Source: a virus
Virus record (IMG/VR): IMGVR_UViG_3300040801_005040
Coordinates: 37,885-101,884 of that record
DNA length: 64,000 nt
Direction: 5' to 3' (one strand)
In this document: one piece after another, positions 41,003 to 42,294 of the stretch
How the letters are laid out: every line of letters starts with the position of its first letter
Position numbering within the stretch: the stretch's first letter is position 1
The notes under the pieces: generated by a model
Told to the model about the DNA's origin: nothing
Database searches by the model: none
What the model saw: only the letters and a program-made list of their open reading frames with translations
Made by a program: the position numbers and the translations under genes

Positions 41003-41575
41003 ATGTATTATTTATACAGGCATGTCAGACCTGATAAGAATCAGGTATTCTATGTTGGCGTAGGAACTTTAATGGGAGAGAATTTAATTCCTCATCTTGG
41101 CAGTACATTCAGAGCTTATTATAGAAGAGCTTTTCAAAAAAAGAGCAGGAATCCTTATTGGCATAATATTGTTAATAAGGCAGGCTATGAAGTAGAAATA
41201 ATGCTTGAATCTGATAGCATAAACTTTATTAAAGAGAAAGAAAAGAAGTTTATACAATTGTATTCAAGTACTCTTTGTAATATGACTACTGGTGGAGACG
41301 GTGTTGAAAGCTATAATCACACTGAAGAAACTAAAAGAAGAATTAGCAATACAATGAAAGGTGTTAAAAAGCCAAAATGTGTTGCTGATAAAATTAACAA
41401 GGCTAAATTTAAGCCTATTATTATGTATAATAACAAGGAAAAATTAGAATTTGATTCTGCCACCAGTGCTGCTAAGTATCTTGGTAACATTAACAAAAGA
41501 TCTAATATTTCAAGTTGTTTATACGGGAAAAGAAATCAAGTAAATGGTTATTATTTTAAATTTAAGGGAGAATGA
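41003..41575 (+). CDS. Free-standing GIY-YIG homing endonuclease with NUMOD3/NUMOD1 domains
   Basis: YLYRH..FYVGVG...R...E..FI..Y..LCN.T.GG; HTEETKRRIS; FDSATSAAKYLG..NISSCL.GKR. Confidence 0.85.
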   Translation: MYYLYRHVRPDKNQVFYVGVGTLMGENLIPHLGSTFRAYYRRAFQKKSRNPYWHNIVNKAGYEVEIMLESDSINFIKEKEKKFIQLYSSTLCNMTTGGDGVESYNHTEETKRRISNTMKGVKKPKCVADKINKAKFKPIIMYNNKEKLEFDSATSAAKYLGNINKRSNISSCLYGKRNQVNGYYFKFKGE

Positions 41576-42294
41576 GCGAAAAAAAAATGATTAAAACAAT
41601 TTGTGTTGACACTCTTAATGGTATTCAAAATAATGAGTACATGGGAATGTTAGACAAGAAAACTATGGTAACTCGGGACAAATGGCGAGATTTCGGAGTC
41701 GCAATCTACATGTTTATGGTTGAAGGTTTACAGAAATTCGGATTTGAAACTGTACTTGTGCTGGGATATGAGGGTACAGGAAAAAGTTTTGGAATCAGAT
41801 ATCTTGAACCAGGCACTAATATTTGGTACAATGCAGACAATAAAAACCCTACATTCAGAGTTATTGAATTTGGAGGGAATGAGTATAATGCTCGTGAGGT
41901 GTATGGTACTAAAGTAAAACCAACACCTTATATGTTTGTTCCAAAAACATATAAAGATATCATAACACATATTCAAAGTATTCAGGATGCTGGTGTTTTA
42001 GCTGAGAACCCTGTTGCATTTCTTACAGGCCACATTGAAGATTATCGCAGTGGTGATGGAGATACTCGTCAAAGACTTAAAACACTTGGAAATCTTGCAA
42101 CCAAGATGAACATTGAAGGTTCTGTTGAAAACTGCCTTTATACATATCTTGATACGCAAGGAGAAAGGCCAGTATATAAATTGGATACAATGAATAGTGG
42201 TTCAAATACTGCTCGTGCTTTACATGGTGCTTTTGGAAGTCGCTATATTGACAATAATTTCCAACTTATTTATGATGCAATAACCTCTTACTAA
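41572..42294 (+). CDS. Sak4/AAA_24-like P-loop ATPase with rearranged motif order
   Basis: KTICVDTL (Walker B-like) precedes [10 protein letters not shown] (Walker A); C-terminal FLTGHIE..LKTLG..IEG..TAR..G.F..YIDN. Confidence 0.75.

Follow-up and report, generated by a model that had tools for sequence, protein, structure and literature searches.

The stretch of DNA analysed here, called the window below (64,000 nucleotides, positions 37,885 to 101,884 of the IMG/VR virus record IMGVR_UViG_3300040801_005040), comes from a 101.9-kb (101,884-base) phage genome. The replication module of this genome contains a gene for a Sak4-like protein, referred to as P0001. The genes of the module and the features recognized within the Sak4-like gene, based on the list of open reading frames (ORFs) and their translations, are collected in Table 1. 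The start codon of the Sak4-like gene overlaps the stop codon of a homing-endonuclease gene (ATGA), which separates it from the gene of a DnaB-like replicative helicase. In most related loci, a homologue of this helicase directly adjoins the Sak4-like gene on the upstream side; therefore, the endonuclease gene looks like a recent insertion. Gaps of 0.3-3 kb are found at the same junction in several other loci too. The GroEL-type chaperonin gene also appears to have been inserted into the module, since in three related loci (L003, L053, and L063) a homologue of the next ORF (43964-44443 in the window) starts 11-23 nt after the Sak4-like gene. Two ORFs without an assigned function are located between the chaperonin gene and the primase gene, and the latter is found 1.0-1.7 kb downstream of the Sak4-like gene in most related loci.

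Table 1. Genes of the replication module and features of the Sak4-like gene, with positions in the window
Feature	Position	Strand	Residues of P0001	Basis and remarks
Second helicase	36208-37341			PHROG 16 DNA helicase, E 1e-17; 2.2 kb upstream of the DnaB-like helicase, same module
DnaB-like replicative helicase	39594-40769	+		Pfam DnaB_C, 1.5e-09; PHROG 19; conserved upstream partner
Homing-endonuclease gene, NUMOD domains	40979-41575	+		Pfam I-HmuI_NUMOD-like, 6.4e-08; PHROG 314, 6.2e-16
Sak4-like gene (P0001)	41572-42294	+	1-240	240 aa, stop codon included
Segment B: Walker B strand and two helices, N-terminal	41572-41745	+	1-58	
Walker B strand, IKTICVDT	41590-41613	+	7-14	D13 and T14 invariant
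DKWRDFG			36-42	Translation
Segment A: beta1, P-loop, alpha1, beta2, variable hairpin, alpha2	41746-41994	+	59-141	
Walker A (P-loop), GYEGTGKS	41764-41787	+	65-72	
NADNKNP			87-93	Translation
D89, acidic, just after beta2	41836-41838	+	89	D-x-K motif; invariant
Segment C: beta4 with putative sensor His, beta hairpin, C-terminal strands and helix	41995-42291	+	142-240	
FLTGHIE, end of beta4	42019-42039	+	150-156	H154 invariant
GroEL-type chaperonin	42294-43931			Cpn60_TCP1, E 7e-55; directly after the Sak4-like gene
DNA primase	45449-46495	+		PHROG 12622, E 1.4e-58; conserved downstream member of the module
RIIA-like gene	46482-49181			PHROG 612, E 8e-54; immediately past the primase
RIIB-like gene	49604-50899			PHROG 609, E 4e-24; downstream of the primase

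P0001 is matched, in two stretches, by PHROG 2872, annotated as 'Sak4-like ssDNA annealing protein' (E 2.1e-27, 97 bits). Its closest cultured relatives are encoded by the Flavobacterium psychrophilum phages FpV4 and Fpv1-3 (39-47% identity), and their RefSeq label is likewise 'Sak4-like ssDNA annealing protein'. Sak4 is known as an ATP-dependent protein that binds and anneals ssDNA (PMC5928155) and forms filaments (PMC11846896). Membership in the Sak4 family was thus already known from PHROG-based annotation; the order of segments described below was found in no paper.

Members of the Sak4 family carry the Walker A motif (GxxGxGK[ST]), the Walker B motif (hhhhD), and a strand with a sensor His, one after another along the chain. 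All three can be recognized in P0001, with GYEGTGKS as Walker A and ICVDT (residues 10-14) as Walker B, but their order is different: the Walker B strand comes first (residues 7-14), Walker A second (residues 65-72), and the His last (residue 154). A preliminary description of this DNA, made from the letters alone, had placed Walker B before Walker A and proposed a naturally rewired RecA-like fold. Translation of the ORF confirmed the observation, as all quoted protein strings are present in the order given there, with LKTLG and then IEG following FLTGHIE. The chain of P0001 is therefore divided here into segment B (residues 1-58), segment A (residues 59-141), and segment C (residues 142-240). 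A-B-C has only two circular forms, B-C-A and C-A-B, and B-A-C is neither of them, in agreement with that description. No canonical AAA_24 gene was found in the phage's own 101.9-kb genome, which makes the permuted gene the sole copy there.

The residues expected at the active site are strongly conserved. In an alignment of 67 sequences, D13, T14, D40, G65, G68, G70, K71, W85, D89, K91, and H154 are invariant, and S72 of the P-loop is at least 90% conserved. Many generic P-loop models of Pfam match the P-loop site in the homologues. In relatives with the canonical A-B-C order, D13 aligns to the invariant D82, H154 corresponds to the invariant H134, and the D-x-K motif is also present after beta2. 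By analogy with E96 of RecA, D89 may serve as the catalytic acid, while the comparison with RecA/DnaB-type ATPases suggests that H154 could act as the gamma-phosphate sensor.

The B-A-C layout is shared by the family. With a word-indexed search, 152 homologues of this layout were retrieved, 220-240 aa in length, and an exhaustive profile search gave 1278 matches, at least 40 of which are full-length permuted proteins that represent clusters at 50% identity. The layout is encoded in 63 IMG/VR loci and also by cultured Flavobacterium phages with complete genomes, including FpV4 and Fpv1-3. As the window derives from a metagenomic viral record, one might suspect an assembly error, a chimera, or a frameshift in the contig. 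The chance of such an artefact is, however, negligible: the same layout recurs in more than 150 proteins from many sequence sources, in the 63 independent viral loci, and in the complete genomes of cultured phages, which rules out misassembly, named in the preliminary description as a finding that would speak against its claim. The homologues of the same order that it predicted were found by the same searches.

In the exhaustive profile search, full-length matches in a single stretch were soon replaced by proteins of the same length matching in three stretches. From these, 80 canonical relatives were picked by their non-collinear matches to the HMM of the permuted family, re-scored with a script. 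Nearly all of them match in three stretches with identical breakpoints, where canonical residues ~3-72 correspond to HMM positions 56-128, residues ~75-120 to positions 4-50, and residues ~122-225 to positions 130-228. A reciprocal search, with an HMM built from the 80 canonical proteins, gave the corresponding picture for P0001: residues 3-49 match canonical positions 74-117 (19.6 bits), residues 59-139 match positions 5-73 (31.9 bits), and residues 133-240 match positions 112-221 (75.7 bits). Segment by segment, the consensus sequences of the permuted and canonical proteins are visibly alike.

Each permuted segment was also compared with the whole canonical profile using hhalign. Segment B aligned with a probability of 97.8% (P 7e-13) to residues 74-123 of the canonical protein P0164, past its A segment; the values were 99.4% (P 4.8e-22) for segment A and 99.9% (P 2.5e-32) for segment C. 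A forced collinear hhalign alignment (E 2.4e-43) brings A and C together but leaves the N-terminus of the permuted proteins unaligned, with a gap of 48 columns exactly at the canonical Walker B segment. The Pfam family AAA_24 matches members of the permuted family in the same non-collinear way: residues 7-60 of P0100 fall on profile positions 64-127, residues 57-76 of P0093 on positions 5-24, and residues 139-203 of P0065 on positions 126-193. Summed over such stretches, the AAA_24 score reaches 27.7-30.9 bits (cut-off 27) in P0065, P0100, P0101, P0107, and P0116. This gap and the non-collinear AAA_24 matches show that Walker A is followed by no Walker B; a canonical Walker B at that place in a collinear alignment was the other finding that the preliminary description had regarded as fatal to its proposal. 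Its expectation of non-collinear AAA_24 matches for residues ~5-55 and ~56-150 was borne out by Pfam, by both directions of the HMM searches, and by hhalign.

It was also considered that P0001 is an ordinary collinear Sak4 protein, with a degenerate P-loop at its N-terminus and a GxxGxGKS arisen by chance at the position of Walker B. The N-terminal hhhhD-T-L-x-G superficially resembles a decayed P-loop strand; yet in every member tested, residues 59-139 map to canonical residues 5-73 and residues 3-49 to canonical residues 74-117, and nearly all of the RecA-like structural matches described below begin with the P-loop strand, at residue 57, which makes this explanation highly improbable. The B-A-C chain order itself accounts for the fragmented and non-collinear character of the HMM and Pfam matches. 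In P0001, AAA_24 gives no match at all, the only Pfam result there being a spurious 12.9-bit match to NAT10, and a profile search of the sequences of solved structures returned only generic P-loop matches to ABC ATPases, at E of 0.02 or above.

An AlphaFold2 (AF2) model of P0001, computed from the alignment of 67 sequences, is predicted as a single compact domain with pLDDT of 92.3 and pTM of 0.90, and pLDDT stays above 90 across the B-A junction. Its predicted elements are strand 7-13 and helices 15-26 and 41-56 in segment B; strand 59-65, helix 71-77, strand 83-87, a subclade-specific hairpin, and helix 127-139 in segment A; and strands 143-159 and 165-169, followed by C-terminal strands and a helix, in segment C. 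The model of the canonical control P0164 (66 sequences, pLDDT 96.5) has identical elements per segment, from strand 3-9 to helix 59-72 in A, strand 78-82 with helices 84-94 and 102-118 in B, and C beginning with strand 128-140. With its 240 aa, P0001 is thus modelled as a core-only RecA-like fold of the kind typical of Sak4 proteins, which have ~200-240 aa and no extra DNA-binding domains.

Both models were compared with 48,161 PDB chains using VIA, a structure aligner that is order-dependent and independent of Foldseek. The top match of both was Sak4 of phage 52A (PDB 8RC5). The canonical P0164 aligns to it over model residues 1-218 (188 aligned, Z 16.5, rmsd 3.1), while the permuted P0001 aligns over residues 57-240 (143 aligned, Z 9.0, rmsd 3.2). 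The 45 aligned residues lost by the permuted model are approximately the size of segment B, and such a loss is what an order-dependent aligner should give on a model with a true segment swap. The other RecA-like matches of the permuted model include RecA (3CMU, Z 7.3), RadA, and RAD51 paralogues, and nearly all of its RecA-like matches start at residue 57, the remainder at residue 54. Foldseek gave no PDB match at E of 0.001 or below; its best rows, KaiC and Sak4 with TM of 0.24-0.28, are forced full-length alignments, and as the method depends on sequence order, this result is uninformative.

The position of the N-terminal strand in the sheet was approached through covariation, with a mean-field analysis of a filtered alignment of 194 family members (Meff about 135), whose signal is weak and whose register is noisy. 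Among the top-ranked pairs, this weak signal connects the N-terminal strand with beta4 (pairs 6-144, 10-143, 11-152, 12-151, and 12-152) and with beta2 (pair 9-83). Five of these six pairs are within the top 100, an enrichment with P of about 0.002, and the strand is paired once with beta7 and never with beta1, beta5, or beta6. Pairs between beta1 and beta4 (58-149 and 61-148) and the expected hairpin pairs are present as well. The weak covariation signal fits a role of the N-terminal strand as beta3 in the ASCE order 1-4-3-2, in a putative slot between beta4 and beta2, and the aligner control is consistent with this. The rewired RecA-like fold of the preliminary description is thus favoured by the confident model, the aligner control, and the weak covariation.

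Two other readings of the N-terminal segment have to be weighed against these data. In the first, which accepts the permuted order, the beta-helix-helix unit at the N-terminus would complete the core of an adjacent protomer, so that the active fold would exist only in an oligomer or filament, as a 3D domain swap. Sak4 and RecA-type proteins do form filaments (PMC11846896), segment B is a self-contained strand-helix-helix module at the end of the chain, and covariation is blind to the difference between contacts within and between chains. Nevertheless, the AF2 monomer is compact and confident at the B-A junction, and helix 41-56 is joined to strand 59-65 by only ~2 residues, which favours an intramolecular return; we regard the domain swap as unlikely. 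In the second, the N-terminal segment would be a relic or another kind of addition, the Walker B being lost or replaced (e.g., by D89), and the protein would be a scaffold that binds nucleotide and does not hydrolyse it. The failure of AAA_24 on P0001 could be read in this way, and some RAD51 paralogues are poor ATPases. However, neither D13 nor T14 varies within the family, the homology of segment B to the Walker B part of canonical proteins is supported by the P value given above, and no strand between beta2 and beta4 is free to fill the slot of beta3. The scaffold is, in our opinion, very unlikely.

To follow the origin of the swap, the permuted sequences were re-ordered to A-B-C and aligned with the canonical ones (167 rows below 70% identity), and a tree was computed with FastTree. 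One branch, with SH-like support of 94, separates all 87 permuted rows from the canonical ones, which corresponds to one change of state. The permuted proteins form one clan, and this topology is consistent with a single origin of the swap. As the RecA superfamily at large runs A-B-C, the change is read in the direction from canonical to permuted. The best explanation is that a single swap took place, in a phage lineage with genomes of roughly 70-105 kb, the cultured members of which infect Flavobacterium. A plausible route would be a tandem duplication of the A-B part, giving A-B-A-B-C, from which the first A and the second B would then disappear to leave B-A-C; every step of this route would keep a foldable protein. 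Among the best 150 of the 1278 matches, members of 246-316 aa contained neither B-A-B-C intermediates nor vestigial A or B segments, and they owe their greater length to additional residues at the N-terminus or within the variable beta2-alpha2 loop.

Some relatives of the permuted gene are interrupted. In one of them (L061, IMG/VR contig 3300037346_000419), a group I intron without an ORF, at 5247-5534, interrupts the codons of the P-loop (...GSPG | TGKS...) and matches the full Rfam model RF00028 with 80.1 bits and E of 8.8e-21. It was found in an Rfam scan of 601 nt and was missed in the whole-locus search at the gathering level. Inserts of ~0.85-1.2 kb are present in four other relatives: that of L059 (1840-3050) lies at the same P-loop site as in L061 (HMM 65/66), while in L053 (3001-3850) and in L055 and L057 (3921-5028) the two segment B helices are separated by the insert, at HMM ~36-38. 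The insert of L053 encodes a homologue of the homing endonuclease of the window. Rfam gave no intron match in L053, L055, or L059, either at the gathering level or at E of 0.001 or below. An intron or endonuclease as the cause of the swap finds no support, as the insertion sites (HMM ~36-38 and 65/66) are different from the swap junctions (55/56 and 128/129).

The sheet of the RecA/ASCE core has the order 5-1-4-3-2, in which beta1, beta4, and beta3 are adjacent, parallel, and start at the same edge of the sheet. On this background, the permuted chain would build the core from the unit of beta3 (Walker B) and two helices first, the unit of beta1, P-loop, alpha1, beta2, and alpha2 second, and the unchanged part from beta4 to the C-terminus last. 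All three segment junctions are found in loops just ahead of strands. Two old links would be replaced, since the helix after beta3, which leads to beta4 in the canonical chain, would now be followed by beta1, and alpha2, which leads to beta3 there, would be followed by beta4. Because each new link would shift by only one or two strand positions, the three-dimensional fold and the active site, with K71/S72, D13/T14, D89, and H154, are most likely kept.

The homologies of the segments and their breakpoints, together with the conservation, the grouping into one clan, and the confidence of the model, lead us to describe P0001 as a Sak4-type, core-only RecA ATPase in which the order of the core chain is altered and the fold and active site are most likely retained, and we assign this reading a probability of roughly 0.8. 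With the catalytic set intact and invariant, an active ATPase with Sak4-like properties would be expected. Like Sak4, it would most likely bind both ATP and ssDNA and take part in annealing or recombination as a member of the helicase-Sak4-primase module, which is in line with its genomic neighbourhood. The broader statement, that this is a natural, single-origin, non-circular permutation in the catalytic core of an ASCE/RecA-class ATPase, fully active and with a canonical sister family, appears probable to us.

Among proteins, well-supported non-circular permutations whose sequences are clearly homologous to the unpermuted form are rare; non-circular permutations as such have been treated in general terms (PMC2096629, PMC10085705). 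Full-text literature searches for a permutation of Sak4, or for permuted P-loop, RecA, Walker, AAA, or NTPase ATPases, returned nothing relevant, and as far as they showed, no non-circular permutation of the RecA/ASCE core has been reported. If our reading is true, the beta-alpha units of Walker A and Walker B can trade places in the sequence while fold and function are preserved, and in one of the oldest enzyme folds the succession of the central strands along the chain is not fixed. The altered order also explains why collinear tools under-annotate such proteins, as Pfam fails on P0001, the PHROG match is split, and Foldseek returns nothing; rules based on motif order may therefore miss genuine ATPases. 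The permuted proteins would then be a rare evolutionary 'experiment' and a ready system for studying how folding of RecA-like proteins depends on order. The permuted protein and its canonical sister, found in equivalent phage modules, form a natural pair in which folding pathways and filament assembly could be studied and which would be of use in protein engineering.

Among known systems, the closest is the Sak4 family (HkaL/Sak4 of HK620, Sak4 of phage 52A with structure 8RC5, AAA_24 PF13479, PHROG 2872). The permuted protein shares with it a single RecA-core domain of ~220-240 aa, Walker A, the hhhhD Walker B, the sensor His strand, a similar C-terminal part, and a gene located in the replication/recombination module of a phage. 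It differs in running B-A-C instead of A-B-C, with the loss of ~45 residues in order-dependent structure aligners. Moreover, the annealing by Sak4 is stimulated by a cognate SSB (PMC5928155), whereas no SSB partner was recognized with Pfam or PHROG among the neighbours of the permuted gene.

The canonical sister subfamily (P0164-like proteins; IMG/VR loci L065-L072) is equal in length, consists of the same three segments, and has about 30% identity overall to the permuted proteins. The two share the motifs G-E-x-G-x-GK, IK-x-h-V-ID-T, h-G/A-H-x-E, LKT-x-G, and NTA-R/K-SP, and they are set apart by the A-B-C order of the sister. Homologues of the primase of the window are encoded 0.7 kb downstream of the canonical relatives, and as homologous primases lie downstream of both forms, the two hold equivalent places in related replication modules. 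The upstream side is different in the canonical locus L066, where a 208-aa ORF is preceded by a different helicase-like ORF that is not DnaB-like. Archaeal RadB and the RAD51 paralogues, the latter reviewed in PMC5928155, are core-only RecA proteins too and were matched by the permuted model (RadB 2CVF at Z 6.0, RAD51 paralogues at Z 6.3-7.0). Their motif order is nevertheless collinear, and their sequence similarity is only distant.

An altered linear order of nucleotide-binding motifs is also known from another group of P-loop NTPases. In the circularly permuted GTPases of the YjeQ/RsgA and YlqF/RbgA type, the motifs follow the order G4-G5-G1-G2-G3. In these GTPases the three-dimensional site is kept, as it most likely is in the permuted Sak4 protein. 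Their permutation is, however, circular and belongs to the kinase-GTPase class, while in the permuted Sak4 protein, of the ASCE/RecA class, two internal units have changed places in a non-circular manner.
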